In this document: piece after piece, positions 3,297-27,727 of the stretch | How positions within the stretch are numbered: position 1 is the first letter of the stretch | How the letters are laid out: every line of letters starts with the position of its first letter | Virus genome (UHGV): UHGV-0288843 | DNA from: a virus | Reading direction: 5' to 3' (one strand) | Length of the DNA: 34,774 nucleotides | Program-made: the position numbers and the translations under genes | The notes under the pieces: generated by a model | Seen by the model: only the letters and a program-made list of their open reading frames with translations | Database searches by the model: none | Told to the model about the DNA's origin: nothing

Positions 3297-3382
3297 CGTT
3301 TTTACCTCGCTTATTGTATGTGCCGTTTGCGATAGCTTTTTCTTTTAGTCTGCGTTTTTTCTTTTTGATTTTAGATTTAGTT

Positions 3383-4144
3383 TTACCCATTCACTTTGAC
3401 CGCCTTTGTCAAATCGAATCCTAAAGCGTTTGGATATCCTTCAACTTCTTCTGGTTTTACATGGTAAACATCTGTTTCAATGTTAAACCCTCCAACTTCG
3501 GCAGCTTTTTTTAACACATGACCATTCCAGCTTTTTCGATAGCCTGTTTTTTTATTTGCTTTAGGACTTACACAACTTCTAGCACCTTCCGCAGTGGCTT
3601 CACACGGTAAAACAAATAACGCTTTGTTTTGTTCGTCTAAATACAGTTGAACCCATTCGGGTTTGTTCAATCGTTGAACTACTGGACCACTTAAAGCCAG
3701 ACCGCTTTTTGAGATCGTTAAACATTCCTCTGCTTTCACTCCAAAATTGTTTGAAATAAGTAACGTTGCTGTATTTAAATTAAATTTCATGCGTTTGTTC
3801 TCCTCTACTTTGTTATTTTCTTTTCGCTTAATTATGTTTTCTATGCCGTTTGCCTTTCGCCAGTTTTGAAATGTGGTTGTTCCAAGTCCGAGAGCTTTCT
3901 TAATATCGTTTACTTGATAACCTAAGTCTAATAAGTGCTGATATTCTTCTTTCGTCAGCTTGTCAGGCTCTAATTTTGGTAATGGTCGCTTATCGTTTAT
4001 AAGGTTAGAATTCAGTCGTTTTGATAATCTCTGGACCTCTTCCACGATTTCTGGATTATTCATCCATGATTCATCATCACCAGTCAAAAAAAGAATTCTC
4101 TGGCGAATGGCTCTTTTTGTTTCTCTGAGTTTGTTTTTCGTCAT
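3383..4144 (-). CDS. putative DNA-binding early protein (N-terminal helix-turn-helix-like region, function unknown)
   Basis: 253-aa ORF in the early operon with a basic N-terminus. No clear family assignment. Confidence 0.4.
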   Translation of the reverse strand: MTKNKLRETKRAIRQRILFLTGDDESWMNNPEIVEEVQRLSKRLNSNLINDKRPLPKLEPDKLTKEEYQHLLDLGYQVNDIKKALGLGTTTFQNWRKANGIENIIKRKENNKVEENKRMKFNLNTATLLISNNFGVKAEECLTISKSGLALSGPVVQRLNKPEWVQLYLDEQNKALFVLPCEATAEGARSCVSPKANKKTGYRKSWNGHVLKKAAEVGGFNIETDVYHVKPEEVEGYPNALGFDLTKAVKVNG

Positions 4145-5189: not shown

Positions 5190-6056
5190 TTACTCTCCTC
5201 CCGACAATTCTTGTATTTGTCTTTTTAGAGCTGCTTGCTCTTCTGGTGATAATTTTTCCTCTTCTTGTTTTGGTTCATTTACCCAATCTGGTAATTGCTC
5301 TTGTCTAACTGGAGGATTCGTATATCTTGCTTGCGTTGTCGTTTCAGATAAGTCGTATTCATCGTTAAAACGTTCATCACGTATCCAGCGGAACAATTCT
5401 TGTGGATGATACCAGTCGTTTAATTTGATATACTTAAGATAAGCTTTGTATCCTGTTTTAAACCGTTCGAAGTCTTCATCTGACTTAATTTTCTTTAAGA
5501 ATTGCTCTTTGGCTTTTTTCTTATTGGTTTTCTTCGGATATGTTTTCCAAACTTTTTCGAATAATTCAAGCATAGTTGAGCTCGGCTCAACACTATTCTT
5601 TTTTTTATCCTTAACTAACCTATCCTTACCTAACCTAACCTGTGTATCCATTTGGTATCCCATACGGTTGTCATCTGGTATACCAAGATGGTTTTCACTC
5701 TCTATAACCTCGGTTTTAAAGGTATATGCCTTACTATTTTTCTCAGCTAATTCAGCCTTTTCTTCTTGATATAGAGTTGGTTTGTATCGATCATTTCGAA
5801 TATAGTTATGAATTTTCCAATGCTTGATAACAATAACTCCGCTATCAAAAACTAAAATGAATCTTTTGGCCATTAATAGCTTTAGATCATCATCTCCACA
5901 TCCAACCATTCGTTGGATTTTCTTAGGATTATTAATAAATCCATCATCATCCGCTCGCATTGACAAATGAAAGTAAAGAGATTGAGTTGACAGCGGCATG
6001 TCTAAAAATGCATCGCTATCAATGATGGTCTTTGCAAACATTCTTCTTTCAGCCAC
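5190..6056 (-). CDS. phage replisome organiser / DnaD-like replication initiation protein
   Basis: The N-terminus MAERRMFAKTIIDSDAFLDMP...SLYFHL matches the replisome-organiser N-terminal domain. Internal GGTTAG iterons are present. Confidence 0.6.
   Translation of the reverse strand: MAERRMFAKTIIDSDAFLDMPLSTQSLYFHLSMRADDDGFINNPKKIQRMVGCGDDDLKLLMAKRFILVFDSGVIVIKHWKIHNYIRNDRYKPTLYQEEKAELAEKNSKAYTFKTEVIESENHLGIPDDNRMGYQMDTQVRLGKDRLVKDKKKNSVEPSSTMLELFEKVWKTYPKKTNKKKAKEQFLKKIKSDEDFERFKTGYKAYLKYIKLNDWYHPQELFRWIRDERFNDEYDLSETTTQARYTNPPVRQEQLPDWVNEPKQEEEKLSPEEQAALKRQIQELSGGE
5593..5650. repeat. Candidate origin of replication: four GGTTAG (CTAACC) direct repeats plus an adjacent A/T run, inside the replisome organiser gene
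   Basis: Plus strand reads ...ctttttttta tcc ttaactaacc tatccttacc taacctaacc tg. Iterons inside the organiser gene are typical of Firmicute phage origins. Confidence 0.4.
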
Positions 6057-22900: not shown

Positions 22901-23255
22901 AACTTGTTACGTTTTCCATATATGCATTCGCTGATAACCCAGATGTTTTATACGCTTCATCTGCATACTTTTTTACTTTGTCCGCACTACCTTTGAATAA
23001 TGTTTCAATCCCACCGAGGGATTGTTGTAGATTTGCTCCTTCTGAAATTGCGGTAGAGAATGCAGTTTTAATTGATGAAATAGCTTTGCCTACAACTGCA
23101 GAAGCAACTTTTACTAATCCCATTGAGATAGCTAAATTTTTTATAGAAAAACCAGCTTTGTCACTACTGCCTTCCAATTGATCTAGCTGGCTGTTAAGCC
23201 CAGCTACACTTTTACCATTAACATCAACATCAATTACAACTTGCCCATCAGCCAT
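19935..23255 (-). CDS. tail tape measure protein
   Basis: Size is 1106 aa. N-terminal coiled coil, central transmembrane-like hydrophobic block, and long tandem ~11-aa periodic repeats (..GI.NN...I.DA..NL..). Confidence 0.85.
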   Translation of the reverse strand: MADGQVVIDVDVNGKSVAGLNSQLDQLEGSSDKAGFSIKNLAISMGLVKVASAVVGKAISSIKTAFSTAISEGANLQQSLGGIETLFKGSADKVKKYADEAYKTSGLSANAYMENVTSFSASLLQSVGGDTEKAADVANMAMIDMSDNANKMGTNMQDIQNAYQGFAKQNYTMLDNLKLGYGGTKEEMQRLLSDAEKLTGVKYDISNLSDVYNAIHAIQENLDITGTTAKEAAETLSGSFAAMKASLSNVLGKMALGQDIQPSLNQLAETTATFLFGNFIPMIGNILKALPRAIVTFVKASIPHVKAAFAELLDSIGDKFPIFDKLFELISKNAQIIKFLGSVIVGAIAGFIAFKATIGIMNSVKTAINGVKTAFSLMKVAMMANPFAVVIAGIGALIAAFIYFYKTSDTFRNKVDGMVLTLKSFMKPIDQVFKGLKLLSKGFVEMLTNGPGEKIAELRSQFIKLFPESLWQGMINFTGKINDMKLGIKAIGKIMSGSIKNMSELGNFLEGAFTVKGEQNIMKIGKAIKNVIDSLKKLINPTERVGKSFDIVGVGLKILKMVILGMMGPVGLFIKVFELLAKALGGGDVNKGIDTIMNSFKGLAEGIKTYGPQLGTNFGTALQGILGAIANALPGIITGALQVVSGFISGIAQGLPSIVVSAGELIMAFTNGIVTLLPIIAQSAVQIINALTNGILLVMPTIIESATMIITTFLGSLTEALPKLLGAGASLINALLQGITEQLPKIVQNMATLIITWLSELNKHLPDILQAGFNLLINFLRGIANNIGKVTNEAISIIVNFVNAIGNRMGDIIDAAVNLMINFLNGLSSRMPDIIDAGVTLIVSVLQGISNNLSRIVDAGMDLVVKCIEGIGNNLYRLVNAAADLVDKLVENIINFSDRMWKAAIRLINGLAEGIDNNKEEAREAVKRLVNSLGSAIVGDELWDAGTSLMGGLLKGIKWGFEKVKGFVSGIADTIASLKGPIPYDKKVLIDNGSALMFGLEKGIIAGFDNVKHLTSNMADSISKELSFDNAFSNFNFTSPELALNTNMMGAANLGSQIVNNSNFAKTYNPTININIEHADLSNEKSIEETSQQLATLTERQTRGRL

Positions 23256-23829
23256 CTTCTTCCTCCTCTCCTAAGTCAGTATTAGGTAAGGCATATTTCC
23301 TTTTTAACTCTCGCATTCGACGTTTTTCTTTACTTGATTCCCCTTTTTGAGGTTCCCAATTCCTAATCTGAATAATCCTCTGCATAATACAATTATCTGG
23401 TAGACTCTCTAAAAGTGCTTGAAACTCTTCCCAACTCATTTTTCCTTGTTCTTCGAAAAGATTAATACCAATTTGACGAAAAGAAGCATAGATATACTTG
23501 GCATCATAAACCAAATCTATATCTTTACTATTTATTTTAGTTGGTAATTCATTGCCTAATTCATCAGTTTCAACTTCGGAATGTTGACCTAAAAGCAGGT
23601 ATTCATCATAAACGTATTTAAACATTTCAAATTTTTGTAGTATATCTAAATCAACTTCCCCAACTAAGATTAGAATCGAAAGTTCAATCTTATCTTCTAA
23701 TATCAAACTCTCATCTTGTATTATTTCAAAAACATCAAGGACATGATCAAACGCTAAGTTTATTGGAAATTCTTTGCCCAAAAACGAAAAGGATGTAGTC
23801 AGCGGATTATTCAACCGCATAATACTCAT
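23248..23829 (-). CDS. tail assembly chaperone, gpT-like portion (probably expressed as a G-T fusion by -1 frameshift)
   Basis: Lies in the -1 frame relative to the upstream chaperone gene, with an ATGA overlap. This is the conserved siphovirus G/GT arrangement. Confidence 0.5.
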   Translation of the reverse strand: MSIMRLNNPLTTSFSFLGKEFPINLAFDHVLDVFEIIQDESLILEDKIELSILILVGEVDLDILQKFEMFKYVYDEYLLLGQHSEVETDELGNELPTKINSKDIDLVYDAKYIYASFRQIGINLFEEQGKMSWEEFQALLESLPDNCIMQRIIQIRNWEPQKGESSKEKRRMRELKRKYALPNTDLGEEEEDG

Positions 23830-24245
23830 CCTTTCTTTTTGCTAACTTTTTTTAGATATTCTTGTTTTAATTTTTTTGATTTTTTACCACGCTCATCTAA
23901 TAATTCAGTCTGTTTCTTAGTGTATTCTTCAATAGATTCACTAATACCTACTGATAAATCGTAAAAGGCGTTTAGCCATGCGATTATGTCTGGGATGTCT
24001 TTATACAAAATTGCAAACGTACCTTCACCAAGTACGGAATCATACCCTTTTGTCAACACAGAAATATATAATTCATCACTCATTTCCTCAGAATTTTCAT
24101 CTAAGTCTTTCAGTTCTTGTACGACTTTATCGTACGTTTCTTCATATTCTTTTATATGCTCTAATGAACAATCAAAGAAAAATTCGTGCCCAGCAATTTT
24201 CACTGGAAAACCAGTACGCTCTACTTTAATCTCTAATGCTTTCAT
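23826..24245 (-). CDS. tail assembly chaperone (gpG-like)
   Basis: 139-aa acidic protein between the major tail protein genes and the tape measure. Confidence 0.5.
   Translation of the reverse strand: MKALEIKVERTGFPVKIAGHEFFFDCSLEHIKEYEETYDKVVQELKDLDENSEEMSDELYISVLTKGYDSVLGEGTFAILYKDIPDIIAWLNAFYDLSVGISESIEEYTKKQTELLDERGKKSKKLKQEYLKKVSKKKG
23835..23841 (-). promoter_or_regulatory. Candidate -1 frameshift site (C AAA AAG) giving the G-T chaperone fusion
   Basis: It is the only slippery site downstream of the last -1-frame stop (TAG). It lies 9 nt before the G stop codon. Confidence 0.35.
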
Positions 24246-24297: not shown

Positions 24298-24750
24298 TTA
24301 TGCTTGATTATTAAGTGTTAAGGTATGTTGTGCTGTTTTCTTACCATCCTCTGTTTCGCCTTCGGTAACATAAGTACCAACTGGTACCGTTTCTGTCCAA
24401 GTAATATTACCTGTTTCAGAGACAGCAAGGCCTTCTGTTACAGGCGTAATAGAATAGTTTACTTTTTTATTTGTAGCATTTTCAGGCAAAACAGTTGCTG
24501 TGATTTGTCGGCTACCTGCAGTACCCGCATTTGCTGTGGACGTTTTAGGAGAAAACTCTAAGCCTGTTACAGCAATTGGCGATGTTTTAAATGACGGTAC
24601 ATCTACTTTTTCGCCGCCGTCTGCAAAACCTACTTTGTATGTTCCTGATGGAACGTCGGTGTTTGGCTCAATACCTGTAATTTCTAGAGGGCTTGGACTA
24701 GCCGGAACAATGACTTCCTCACCTTTATAAACAATATACTCTCTAGCCAT
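24298..24750 (-). CDS. Ig-like (Big_2) domain tail protein, encoded as a separate gene after the major tail protein
   Basis: The C-terminal 80 aa (TGLEFSPKTSTANAGTAGSRQITATVLPENATNKKVNYSITPV...) match the bacterial Ig-like fold. It has its own ribosome-binding site. Confidence 0.55.
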   Translation of the reverse strand: MAREYIVYKGEEVIVPASPSPLEITGIEPNTDVPSGTYKVGFADGGEKVDVPSFKTSPIAVTGLEFSPKTSTANAGTAGSRQITATVLPENATNKKVNYSITPVTEGLAVSETGNITWTETVPVGTYVTEGETEDGKKTAQHTLTLNNQA

Positions 24751-24752
24751 TC

Positions 24753-24833
24753 TTATTCTCCTTTCTCCATTTCAATGATTACCCCAGTTTTAGTCGGAGT
24801 CATTTTACCGATTACTGGGGTTATACTTTTGGG
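24753..24833 (-). promoter_or_regulatory. -1 programmed ribosomal frameshift cassette at the 3' end of the major tail protein gene. It has the slippery heptamer C CCA AAA (24827-24833), a 6-nt spacer, a stem-loop (24782-24820), and an open -1 frame for ~24 extra codons ending at TAA (24753)
   Basis: Read directly from the sequence. See findings. Confidence 0.55.
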
Positions 24834-25300
24834 GTGATATTAGGTAAGGTATCAAAGGTAATCGTGCAGCTGAAATCTTCATACTCTGTCGCATCTCCTG
24901 CACCAGCGACAATATCTGTTACTGTTGCACGCCCTACATAAGTATCGCCATTCGTCATAATAATTTTATGCCAAATCTTACGATTTTCTCCAATTTTGTA
25001 TTTTTTACTTGCAATTAATTTTTGTGCGGGATCTTCTGGGTCATAAAATCCTTCAGGACTATAAGCACCAGAAACAGAAGTCACTGTAGTTTCTGGTGTA
25101 CCATCGCCATCATAGAAACCTGCATCGTCCGTTTCTTCATCGGTATCATCGCCAATTGAACTAATGTACTTGGCAAGACGTTTCCACTCTAACTCGGTAG
25201 TTGGTGTTGTTTCTTTCCCAGGTACATACTCAGCAATAAAATGCTGCCGTTTTGCATTTTTGTTCCGTGCAAACATTTGAATATTCATTTTTAATAACAT
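24821..25300 (-). CDS. major tail protein
   Basis: 159-aa protein positioned between the tail completion proteins and the chaperone/tape-measure genes. Ribosome-binding site is AAGGAGG. Confidence 0.55.
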   Translation of the reverse strand: MLLKMNIQMFARNKNAKRQHFIAEYVPGKETTPTTELEWKRLAKYISSIGDDTDEETDDAGFYDGDGTPETTVTSVSGAYSPEGFYDPEDPAQKLIASKKYKIGENRKIWHKIIMTNGDTYVGRATVTDIVAGAGDATEYEDFSCTITFDTLPNITPKV

Positions 25301-26763: not shown

Positions 26764-26792
26764 CTTAGATTCCTCCTAAAAAAAGAAGGAGA

Positions 26793-26873
26793 CTAAGCTC
26801 CTTCTTCCATTTCAATAACAACCCCGCTTGTTGTCGGCGTTAGTTTACCAACTTTCGGGGCTACACTTTTGGG
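26793..26873 (-). promoter_or_regulatory. -1 programmed ribosomal frameshift cassette at the 3' end of the major capsid gene. It has the slippery heptamer C CCA AAA (26867-26873), a 6-nt spacer, a stem-loop (26822-26860), and an open -1 frame for ~24 extra codons ending at TAG (26793). An intrinsic terminator hairpin follows (26778-26808)
   Basis: Read directly from the sequence. See findings. Confidence 0.55.
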
Positions 26874-27727
26874 GCAACACCTTTAATAATCGCTTTAGCA
26901 TTTTTTTCAGGGATATATTTGCCATACTTACCTGCCGCTTGTAACGCTGTGCCTGCGAAATCTTCTGAATCCATAGCACGTGCTACTTGAATACCTACGC
27001 CAGCTACACCTACGTTATCAGCTGAAAAAATTGCTACCTCATTTGGTTGAAATTTTTCATCTGGTAACTCTTCTAAAACAAACCCTTTAAATTTGTATAA
27101 AGTTTGTTCATCAACATTAGCGGATGAATTTTTAGAAGTTGTTGCAAGTTTTGAATCAATTAATAAGTCGTAAACGTCTGAATTAACATAGGCAACCCAT
27201 GCAACGTTTTGAGAAACATTGTTATTAACAAATTTCTTATGAGCATTAGAAAATAGTTTTGTAATACCAGCTTCATCTAATGTAGTGGTTAGTTCTTCAC
27301 TTGCATTGTCAGATAATGCTTTGCCTAACAAGTTATCCACATGTTGCGCCCAGGCAACAGCATGCAAAGCTAAGCGCTCTGCTACAACTTGATCAGGAAT
27401 ATCATTTACAGTAAACTGATCGACACCTTCATGAATTGAAAGTGGCGCTTCATATTTAACTTGTTTATTGACTGATTTAACTTCTTTACGTTTACCAAAA
27501 CGGCTTGAGCTGCCTGTCCCTGTTCCAAATCCTACATTTTCATCTGTCGAATATGCTTGAATAACAACGTCCGTATCTGTAACTTTCAAATCTAGAAATG
27601 TATCGTTTTGAGAGACTCCGTCTTTTGTCTGTAAAGTACCTCCGAAAGCACGTAAAAATACTGCTTTTTTAGCAAACAGTTCTGGCAAAATACCTGCATA
27701 TTGTTTAGTGTAATATTTGATTGACAT
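26861..27727 (-). CDS. major capsid protein
   Basis: 288-aa protein immediately after the scaffold gene. A strong terminator lies downstream. Confidence 0.7.
   Translation of the reverse strand: MSIKYYTKQYAGILPELFAKKAVFLRAFGGTLQTKDGVSQNDTFLDLKVTDTDVVIQAYSTDENVGFGTGTGSSSRFGKRKEVKSVNKQVKYEAPLSIHEGVDQFTVNDIPDQVVAERLALHAVAWAQHVDNLLGKALSDNASEELTTTLDEAGITKLFSNAHKKFVNNNVSQNVAWVAYVNSDVYDLLIDSKLATTSKNSSANVDEQTLYKFKGFVLEELPDEKFQPNEVAIFSADNVGVAGVGIQVARAMDSEDFAGTALQAAGKYGKYIPEKNAKAIIKGVAPKV

Follow-up and report, generated by a model that had tools for sequence, protein, structure and literature searches.

A predicted frameshift tag on the capsid and tail-tube proteins of an Enterococcus faecalis prophage looks like half of a split Ig-like domain

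What might a tail-tube protein and a capsid protein do with the same short extension? In the UHGV virus genome UHGV-0288843 (34,774 nucleotides (nt); the whole of this stretch was analysed and is called the window here), the genes for the tail-tube protein and for the major capsid protein both end in a cassette with the features of −1 programmed ribosomal frameshifting, and in each the shifted frame encodes a peptide of 24 residues, the 'tag'. Sequence comparison makes it very probable that ribosomes shift frame by −1 at both gene ends, so that each protein would be made in a short and a long form. The tag itself looks, from a structure model, like one half of an Ig-like domain, strands A and B, with the other half forming the N-terminus of a neighbouring Ig-domain gene. 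The frameshift is of a known type; the new part is its product, which has a fair chance of representing a new mechanism of virion decoration. All of the genes discussed (capsid, tail-tube and the Ig-domain open reading frame (ORF)) lie on the minus strand of the window, and the features at the tail-tube gene are the following.

24821–25300, minus strand: tail-tube (major tail) gene, zero frame, 159 amino acids (aa); from the ORF list and homologues.
24827–24833, minus strand: zero-frame slippery heptamer of the tail-tube gene, C CCA AAA, kept in Enterococcus relatives; from the sequence.
24782–24826, minus strand: spacer GUAUAA (6 nt) and putative stimulatory hairpin; from folding.
24753–24827, minus strand: −1 extension (tag) of the tail-tube gene, 24 codons, SITPVIGKMTPTKTGVIIEMEKGE, plus a TAA stop; from translation, a hidden Markov model (HMM) of the tag and an AlphaFold2 (AF2) model.
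24298–24750, minus strand: gene of a putative decoration protein, termed 'headless' here, 150 aa; from the ORF list, homologues and AF2.

The tail-tube protein has 303 homologues that their sources name 'phage tail tube protein', and it belongs to the Tsh family (45% identity to Tsh of Listeria phage A500 by tblastn). The protein is 99% identical to an entry named 'phage tail tube protein [Enterococcus faecalis]' and is found, letter for letter, on 564 E. faecalis contigs; the window therefore represents a common E. faecalis prophage. At its 3' end the gene reads ACC CCA AAA GTA TAA, with the zero-frame stop (24821–24823) inside the spacer. Behind it, CCCCAGU (24820–24814) pairs with ACUGGGG (24788–24782) and encloses an inner helix of UCGG (24811–24808) with CCGA (24797–24794), the whole hairpin having a minimum free energy of −16.9 kcal/mol (z −3.8). 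The −1 frame starts at A24827 and ends with the stop at 24755–24753, leaving a gap of 2 nt to the ATG (24750) of the 150-aa Ig-domain ORF, and the Shine-Dalgarno sequence of that ORF is encoded within the last codons of the tag. A first-pass annotation of this DNA had already proposed a −1 cassette here, with this heptamer, 7-bp stem and inner helix, and an extension of ~24 aa ending 2 nt before the Ig-domain gene; all of these elements were recovered at the same positions, and translation gives the same peptide. The predicted long tail-tube form has 182 aa and 20.2 kDa, against 17.7 kDa for the short form (+2.44 kDa), and its extension is expected to yield the peptides SITPVIGK, MTPTK and TGVIIEMEK. 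The long form is absent from a collection of 15 billion proteins, from which we conclude that it has never been annotated.

The capsid gene has a second copy of the cassette, followed by one further element.

26861–27727, minus strand: major capsid protein gene, zero frame, 288 aa; from the ORF list and homologues.
26867–26873, minus strand: zero-frame slippery heptamer of the capsid gene, C CCA AAA; from the sequence and a pattern search.
26822–26866, minus strand: spacer GUGUA(G) with the zero-frame stop (26861–26863), then a hairpin; from folding.
26793–26867, minus strand: −1 extension of the capsid gene, second copy of the tag, 24 codons, SVAPKVGKLTPTTSGVVIEMEEGA, plus a TAG stop (26795–26793); from translation, alignment and the tag HMM.
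26778–26804, minus strand: terminator-like hairpin GAAGGAG-cuuagu-CUCCUUC, then U7; fold of −13.1 kcal/mol.

The identity of the capsid gene is based on tblastn matches in related loci, which occupy the capsid position, and an Oceanobacillus homologue of the protein (37–44% identical) is assigned to Pfam Phage_capsid_4. The final codons of the capsid gene are GCC CCA AAA GTG TAG, and its hairpin (−17.7 kcal/mol, z −2.8) has CCCCG (26856–26860) paired with CGGGG (26822–26826) around an inner helix of GUUGGU with GCCGAC (26847–26852 with 26833–26838). The predicted long capsid form has 311 aa and 33.6 kDa, against 31.3 kDa for the short form (+2.28 kDa), with SVAPK and LTPTTSGVVIEMEEGA as expected extension peptides. 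In the window no headless ORF follows the capsid tag. The stop codon of the capsid extension sits in the loop of the terminator-like hairpin, which a consensus terminator scan did not list and which was found by direct folding. The conserved stretch ATTGAAATGGARRAAGGAG has three roles, as tag-coding sequence, as Shine-Dalgarno sequence in the tail copy and as part of the terminator-like hairpin in the capsid copy.

The two cassettes are unlikely to resemble each other by accident. They are 77% identical over 126 nt and share the heptamer, in keeping with the earlier description of a near-identical capsid twin with a homologous peptide, and a 17-nt pattern common to both, CCCAAAAGNNTARCCCC, occurs exactly twice in the window against an expectation of 0 (100 shuffles). 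Read from the alignment of the two cassettes, the differences in the −1 frame are six purely synonymous ones plus the replacements I/V, M/L, T/S and T/A, and such synonymous and conservative differences are a coding signature. Both cassettes combine an in-frame heptamer, a structure 5–6 nt downstream and an open, conserved −1 frame of 24 codons. No Rfam covariance model matches either cassette at E <= 1.

To follow the cassettes beyond the window, an alignment of the tail-tube protein was used to fetch 62 genomic and 80 viral loci, and the 3' ends of their tail-tube and capsid genes were inspected. A homologous peptide of 18–28 aa is encoded in the −1 frame behind both genes in many Bacillota prophages, with the consensus GV..P.V.NV.PTTDGA.V.L in Bacillaceae and S(V/I)(A/T)P.V.K(L/M)TPT..GV.IEM in Enterococcus. 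In all, 51 different but related stretches of sequence were seen to code for a tag, and the 42 typical −1 cassettes among them were examined in detail. The heptamer is G GGG GAG or G GGG GAA in 31 of the 42, C CCA AAA in eight, G GGA AAC in two and A AAA AAA in one, the head gene of phage phiEf11; a further cassette outside the 42, at the capsid gene of locus L147, has A AAA AAG. These five slippery heptamers keep the same distance to the same type of hairpin: a hairpin closed by CCCC/GGGG is the minimum-energy fold in 40 of the 42 cassettes and starts ~5–7 nt past the heptamer, with a mean energy of −16 kcal/mol and a mean z of −2.6 among the related cassettes. In four loci the zero-frame stop has moved downstream while the heptamer is kept (L026, L022, L017, L033), which argues that the signal is the heptamer and not the stop.

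The stem of the tag cassettes is under selection at the RNA level. RNAalifold on a codon-register alignment recovered only three pairs, with the 5' arm shifting by +/−1 nt, and the arms were therefore re-anchored for the analysis of covariation. The fifth pair of the stem joins the wobble position of a Pro codon (CCG/CCA) to that of the codon preceding GGG, which encodes Asp, Ser or Thr; the pair is G-C in 14 cassettes, A-U in 12 and G-U in seven, with no mismatch (Fisher 1.6e-4), and the covariation thus falls on two synonymous positions. A double change, CUCC/GGAG, is found in the stem of one cassette. Cells changed on both sides of the stem number 29, against 13.9 in shuffles (reached by none of 500 shuffles), pairing is 73% as against 40–55% when the partner columns are slid, and the Gly codon of the tag is GGG in 40 of 42 cassettes, against a 12% use of this codon in host genes. 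None of the seven tags that are in frame or reached by a +1 shift carries the clamp. The in-frame tags are those of the phiEf11 tail protein ORF15 and of two ORFs of a Staphylococcus phage of the Twortvirinae, and the tags behind a +1 site of the type CCC_stop are those of the L147 tail gene, Staphylococcus phage IMEP5 and both genes of Enterococcus phage SANTOR1. It seems, therefore, that the peptide is a protein module that can be reached by any route, and that the hairpin belongs to the −1 route. With the conserved geometry, the five heptamers, the covariation at synonymous sites and the occurrence of the tag in frame or behind +1 sites elsewhere, comparison supports the proposal of the first-pass annotation that both genes use −1 frameshifting.

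Six-frame searches for the tag have an artefact of their own. The stem is palindromic, so that the reverse complement of a cassette can also give a tag-like peptide (..APSVVGVT..; for example in L010, minus strand, 5925–6014), with a weak tag-HMM score.

What, then, is the tag for? The 24 residues do not amount to a self-contained folded extension; in the AF2 model they are two strands of a domain that another ORF completes. The headless ORF begins MAREYIVYKGEEV... and resembles an FN3 domain that starts at strand C: its N-terminal ~60 aa match strands C–G of an FN3-like fold without A and B, and a Big_2 domain follows (a weak match in Pfam). All of its homologues start M-x-(F/Y)-K-I-Y-K-G. 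For modelling, the tag of the window was fused in cis to its ORF, with an alignment of 73 homologues that has zero depth over the tag. The fusion is predicted with a mean predicted local distance difference test (pLDDT) score of 95.4, and the tag forms two strands, residues 6–12 and 15–20, at pLDDT 91–95. The best full-length Foldseek matches of this model are two-domain (tandem) Ig/FN3 proteins, with Big_2 matching the second domain. The first-pass annotation had called the shared peptide distinctive and mentioned the Ig-domain gene only as a neighbour; it had missed that the peptide looks like part of a split domain.

The tag and the headless domain also occur together. We searched six-frame translations of all loci with the tag HMM and with an HMM of the N-terminal 60 aa of the headless protein, the sample being 143 loci fetched by tail-tube homology only. 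Tags and a headless domain were both found in 40 loci and neither in 100; one locus had tags only (L027) and two had a headless domain only (L093 and L095), and these last two have a variant tag, RLTPSIDGVDVTATSATFQLS, behind C CCA AAA. Where both features were found, the distance from the stop codon of one of the tag cassettes to the start of the headless ORF is 1–19 nt, except for a single locus with 62 nt, and the ORF has its own Shine-Dalgarno sequence and start codon. It lies behind the capsid tag in Bacillaceae and behind the tail tag in Enterococcus, and in loci with both features no comparable ORF follows the tag of the other gene. Mean tag identity is 0.51 within a genome against 0.32 between genomes, and at clade level the two tags of a genome are mutual best matches.

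Where the two parts are found in one chain, they are adjacent. Among the 120 listed of the 174 matches to a profile of tag plus domain, coverage is 57–72% and takes in the domain part only. With a domain-only profile, an exhaustive HMMER search of 1.84 billion proteins gave full-length matches that nearly always begin at residue 1–6. The rare internal copies are contiguous full domains that have the tag motif directly N-terminal in the same chain, as in the proteins P0350 (...SPTLTELTPTKDGFTVKLTGSNEDSTFRIYDKSG...), P0311 (MVDTLSATTDGAVVSFKNVNVGDTFRIYTDQN...), P0289, P0298 and P0266 (...PPTIESVTPTEDGAVVIVVSGNGIDGSTMKVYQASDD...) and also P0399, and these contiguous homologues need ~80 aa for the fold. 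The contiguous copies indicate that the tag and the headless part are one evolutionary and structural unit.

The split domain is found well beyond this prophage, and its cargo varies. One or two copies of Big_2, He_PIG, acidic PE repeats or a Thr-rich linker can follow the headless domain, and some proteins have no cargo; in L014 (~3311–3658) the headless ORF carries a Thr-rich, mucin-like repeat, TTTTTKPTTTTTTTKATTTTTTEK..., in place of an Ig-like domain, and some other headless ORFs carry long PE repeats. A tblastn search for the headless domain returned 583 phage records, 458 from Staphylococcus and 115 from Enterococcus phages plus some from Brochothrix and Lactobacillus, and four of these records were looked at in detail. 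Staphylococcus phage vB_Sau_P68 (Twortvirinae; L148, 2339–3749) has three adjacent ORFs in which tags and headless domains alternate. The first encodes a protein with an in-frame tag at its end (...SAPENVKVTPTEDGADVTAE), the second a headless domain, Big_2 and a tag (LAKLNLYKGNELV... ...PEAPTDVTVDPGENSADITA), and the third a headless domain with an acidic (PE) tail (MEKTLKVYQNGEVV...). Such an arrangement predicts that the three proteins would form a non-covalent head-to-tail chain. The genes that flank this three-gene set bear the labels recombinase / RNA polymerase and DNA repair exonuclease, and it does not lie beside a capsid or tail gene. In SANTOR1 (Efquatrovirus; L150, 3355–3710 and 5725–5800) the capsid and tail genes end CCC TAG and have nearly identical +1 tags (STPPVVGQVT..TSATIELS), and a headless-only ORF of 73 aa behind the capsid tag is annotated 'major tail protein'; neither +1 shift is annotated.

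These observations can be joined into one mechanism. Ribosomes that reach the end of either gene would meet C CCA AAA and, 5–6 nt downstream, the clamped hairpin, and a fraction of them would slip back by one base, re-pairing from CCA to CCC and from AAA to AAA. Ribosomes that do not slip would add one Val and stop, giving products of 159 aa and 288 aa, and those that slip would add the 24-residue tag, giving 182 aa and 311 aa, both sets of lengths being read directly from the sequence. Not itself a domain, the tag would supply strands A and B of an FN3-like Ig fold, as the AF2 model and the contiguous homologues suggest, and the gene 2 nt past the tail tag would supply strands C–G at the N-terminus of its product, followed by Big_2. 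The headless protein would then be able to complete its first domain only with a tag and would therefore dock, non-covalently, onto the tagged subunits of head and tail and display Big_2 on the virion. The efficiency of frameshifting would then set the number of decorated subunits, with head and tail sharing a single decoration gene. Only 2 nt separate the end of the tail tag from the ATG, and the tag holds the Shine-Dalgarno sequence, which makes coupling by termination and reinitiation conceivable; more speculatively, synthesis of the headless protein may be tied to frameshift events in this way. That tag strands A–B are completed in trans by headless strands C–G, with docking of a decoration protein, seems to us reasonably probable from sequence and model, and we regard the whole chain, from frameshifting through docking, as rather more probable than not. 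With similar confidence we suggest that the split FN3-like domain is a general tag/catcher docking system in many Bacillota phages, with −1, +1 or in-frame routes to the tag and a variable cargo.

Several observations weigh against this interpretation, at the level of both the recoding signal and the docking. The heptamer of most Bacillaceae cassettes (L002, L004, L014, L016, L024 and others; for example L002, 6466–6545), G GGG GAG or GAA, departs from the canonical X XXY YYZ pattern. It is kept even where the zero-frame stop is displaced, which suggests P-site slippage on G_GGG with imperfect re-pairing in the A site; the P site would re-pair perfectly, and the A site would need a G.U pair at the middle position. 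The capsid hairpins of Bacillaceae are weak (z about −0.5). An H-type pseudoknot (loop GACUG with a downstream CAGUC) was considered for these hairpins and rejected, the loop crossing stem 1 being 0 nt long. Pfam finds no fn3 match in the headless ORF, in the tag-ORF fusion or in 20 fusions. An hhalign comparison of the fusions with full FN3 extensions is weak (probability 6.5%), although even this match places the headless part at FN3 columns 31–79, in agreement with the AF2 model. That model is of a cis fusion, which forces both parts together, and AF2 without an alignment was uninformative (pLDDT 31). The co-occurrence of tag and headless domain (Fisher p 7e-32) is counted over loci that are not phylogenetically independent. 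The extension peptide of phiEf11 was not detected by mass spectrometry (PMC5221750), and Brochothrix phage NF5 has been studied by cryo-EM without a decoration protein or a frameshift being described, no check having been made of whether NF5 has the tag system. On the separate matter of a covalent isopeptide lock of the SpyTag type, no conserved Lys/Asp/Asn pair spanning tag and acceptor is evident in the alignment, which was given no closer examination on this point.

Could the frameshift occur and the tag nevertheless act alone? It might form a surface hairpin or a clasp between subunits, with the adjacent headless ORF as the remnant of an FN3-Big_2 extension that was cut by a stop. In members of the same tail-tube family (L001, L066 and phages A2 and A500) the same slip site does lead into a complete FN3 or Big_2 extension, the headless protein of the Efquatrovirus has no cargo, and the binding of tag and headless protein in trans is something that we so far infer. 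Yet the split persists across 583 phage records, in phages of Enterococcus, Bacillaceae, Staphylococcus and Brochothrix, none of the 120 listed of the 174 homologues covers tag and domain together, and a second tag with no ORF behind it is maintained on the other structural gene. A fragment of 55–60 aa without two of the three strands of one sheet is also unlikely to fold alone, and the proteins of the Twortvirinae phage alternate tags and headless domains; we consider a tag that acts alone unlikely, while leaving it some weight.

Two further explanations dispense with docking in trans or with recoding altogether. Ribosomes might recode once more where the tag ends, by stop bypass or a −1 shift, and so join tail-tube protein, tag and Ig ORF in one chain, as in A2 and A500; the Ig ORF is indeed one more −1 step away from the tag frame and only 2 nt past the tag stop, and some other proteins have the domain in contiguous form. 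The tag end has no slippery heptamer, however, and a second −1 slip is rejected on that ground; a strong Shine-Dalgarno sequence and a start codon precede the headless ORF in every locus, and the varying gap (1–19 nt, and 62 nt in one locus) means that the relative frame is not fixed. Moreover, what lies behind the capsid tag is a terminator-like hairpin, with no ORF. A +1 shift from the end of the tail gene into the Ig ORF was rejected likewise, that frame holding three stops, and a fusion in cis appears very improbable. That no recoding takes place, the cassette being an RNA element (a 3' stabiliser, a processing site or an attenuator) and its open −1 frame a by-product, would fit the position of the hairpins at gene 3' ends, the terminator-like hairpin behind the capsid copy and the tag-like peptides that a reverse-strand reading of the palindromic stem also yields. 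Such an element would not account for five slippery heptamers held at a fixed distance, for a protein-like pattern of substitution in the −1 frame, for the same peptide being encoded in frame or behind +1 sites that have no hairpin, or for the tag motif forming part of contiguous domains, and we give this explanation almost no credence.

The preferred interpretation, frameshifted tags completed in trans by the headless protein, has precedents for its first step. Lactobacillus phage A2, like the window, has C CCA AAA at the ends of its head and tail genes (ACC CCA AAA GCG TAA and GCC CCA AAA GCG TAG), and each opens a −1 ORF for Big_2. The same heptamer and context at the gene ends of A2 mean that the type of recoding in the window is not novel; the first-pass annotation was right in seeing a textbook −1 signal, and the point that it missed is that this recoding was already known from A2. 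The −1 shifts of A2, in the major head protein (gp5A/gp5B) and the major tail protein (gp10A/gp10B), have reportedly been proven by experiment, and each gene, like those of the window, would yield virion proteins of two lengths. Its extensions are complete Big_2 domains of ~85–90 aa in one chain, whereas that of the window has 24 aa, about a quarter of the fold.

Among Listeria phages, A118 and A500 use a −1 shift in cps and, in tsh, a +1 shift at CCC_UGA; in PSA the shift is +1 in either gene (Atkins et al. review). The sequences of A500 and PSA agree with these directions, and the statement in the first-pass annotation that PSA shifts by +1 in cps and tsh was accurate. A500 resembles the window in having a tail-tube protein of the Tsh family and recoding at the 3' ends of cps and tsh, and the heptamer of its cps gene, G GGA AAC, is also the slip site in two tag cassettes; it differs in that cps shifts by −1 into a HeH domain and tsh by +1 at CCC_UGA into Big_2. 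In PSA the +1 extensions are a HeH domain and an acidic 24-mer unrelated to the tag, and PSA was ruled out as closest relative on this basis. No tag was found in the extensions of A118, A500 or PSA, and no headless ORF is listed in the three annotated regions that were looked at. With one putative recoding site at the 3' end of its capsid gene and one at that of its tail-tube gene, the window shares this placement with the phages whose structural proteins are extended by recoding. The G/GT shift of tail assembly chaperones, which is sited between the two chaperone genes found between tail-tube and tape-measure genes, was ruled out as the identity of the cassettes: these belong to the tail-tube and capsid genes, and the chaperone pair is elsewhere, at 23248–24245.

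Closer to the tag itself is phiEf11. For its head protein, ORF10, the original paper describes a speculative −1 shift with an extension of 21 aa, and two ORF10 bands on gels (PMC5221750). Its tag is of the same family as that of the window (IEAPKVESVIPTTDGASIVLS), with the same CCCCG/CGGGG hairpin, and ORF16 is a homologue of the headless ORF; the heptamer, A AAA AAA, and the capsid family are different. The tail protein ORF15 belongs to another family of major tail proteins (PF06199) and has the tag in frame. As far as the available part of the paper goes, its authors drew no relation between the extension and ORF15 or ORF16 (PMC5221750). The paper also reports that ORF15 runs at 28 kDa against a predicted 21.5 kDa, and that the long head band is 3–4 kDa above the short one, with an extension of only 2.1 kDa (PMC5221750).

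For the decoration proposed here, the nearest likeness is to systems in which an Ig-like module is placed on some of the subunits. In Bacillus phage SPP1, gp17.1* (of the class of Fraser et al. 2006) puts an Ig/FN3 module on a fraction of the tail-tube subunits that is set by recoding, as the window would; in SPP1 a whole FN3 domain is fused in cis and there is no partner in trans. In a 2021 review of major tail proteins, Ig-like domains are treated solely as fusions at the C-terminus or as products of frameshifting. A working analogy is offered by donor-strand complementation in chaperone-usher pili and by split CnaB2 (SpyTag/SpyCatcher), where a short peptide of another chain completes an Ig-like fold that lacks one or more strands. 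These systems use one strand, C-terminal or N-terminal, whereas the tag would give two N-terminal strands; the proposed pairing would involve neither an isopeptide bond nor a chaperone and has the context of virion decoration, and the likeness would be one of function and not of membership. In the literature on phages we found no account of a split domain or of an Ig-like decoration completed in trans, most subscription journals being outside the coverage of our search.

If the proposed docking is real, one decoration protein would be attached to two unrelated lattices, with an occupancy set by frameshift efficiency, and completion in trans would explain why very short frameshift extensions exist at all. 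A small, non-covalent tag/acceptor pair on assembled capsids and tails would also offer a handle for phage display and engineering. Unannotated long forms of the two most abundant virion proteins are to be expected in a common E. faecalis prophage and in the hundreds of headless-bearing Enterococcus and Staphylococcus phages, many of which are therapeutic candidates, and the small headless gene is routinely mislabelled 'major tail protein' in annotations.

The structural module of the window may hold yet another recoding site. The tail assembly chaperone pair (23248–24245, minus strand) consists of ORFs of 139 aa and 193 aa with an ATGA overlap, the second in the −1 frame. Near the junction (23826–23850) the −1 frame is open only after a TAG, starting just upstream of ...AGC AAA AAG AAA GGA TGA. 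Slippage here would probably be on A_AAG, as the conserved −1 shift of the G/GT type, and would give the module a third recoding site.

The 3' ends of Tsh-family genes are diverse more generally (L001–L142). A full FN3 domain is found behind A AAA AAA or C CCA AAA in L001, L050 and L066, and FN3 extensions behind a +1 site, CCC_UGA/UAA, in L055 and L056. Acidic Pro/Glu peptides lie behind +1 sites in L005, L019 and L034–L038, Lys-rich tails are found in L077, L081 and L089, and in-frame fusions to Big_2, fn3 and CarboxypepD_reg in the proteins P0032, P0112 and P0081. In L100 the tail-tube gene ends with a decayed −1 ORF of six codons.

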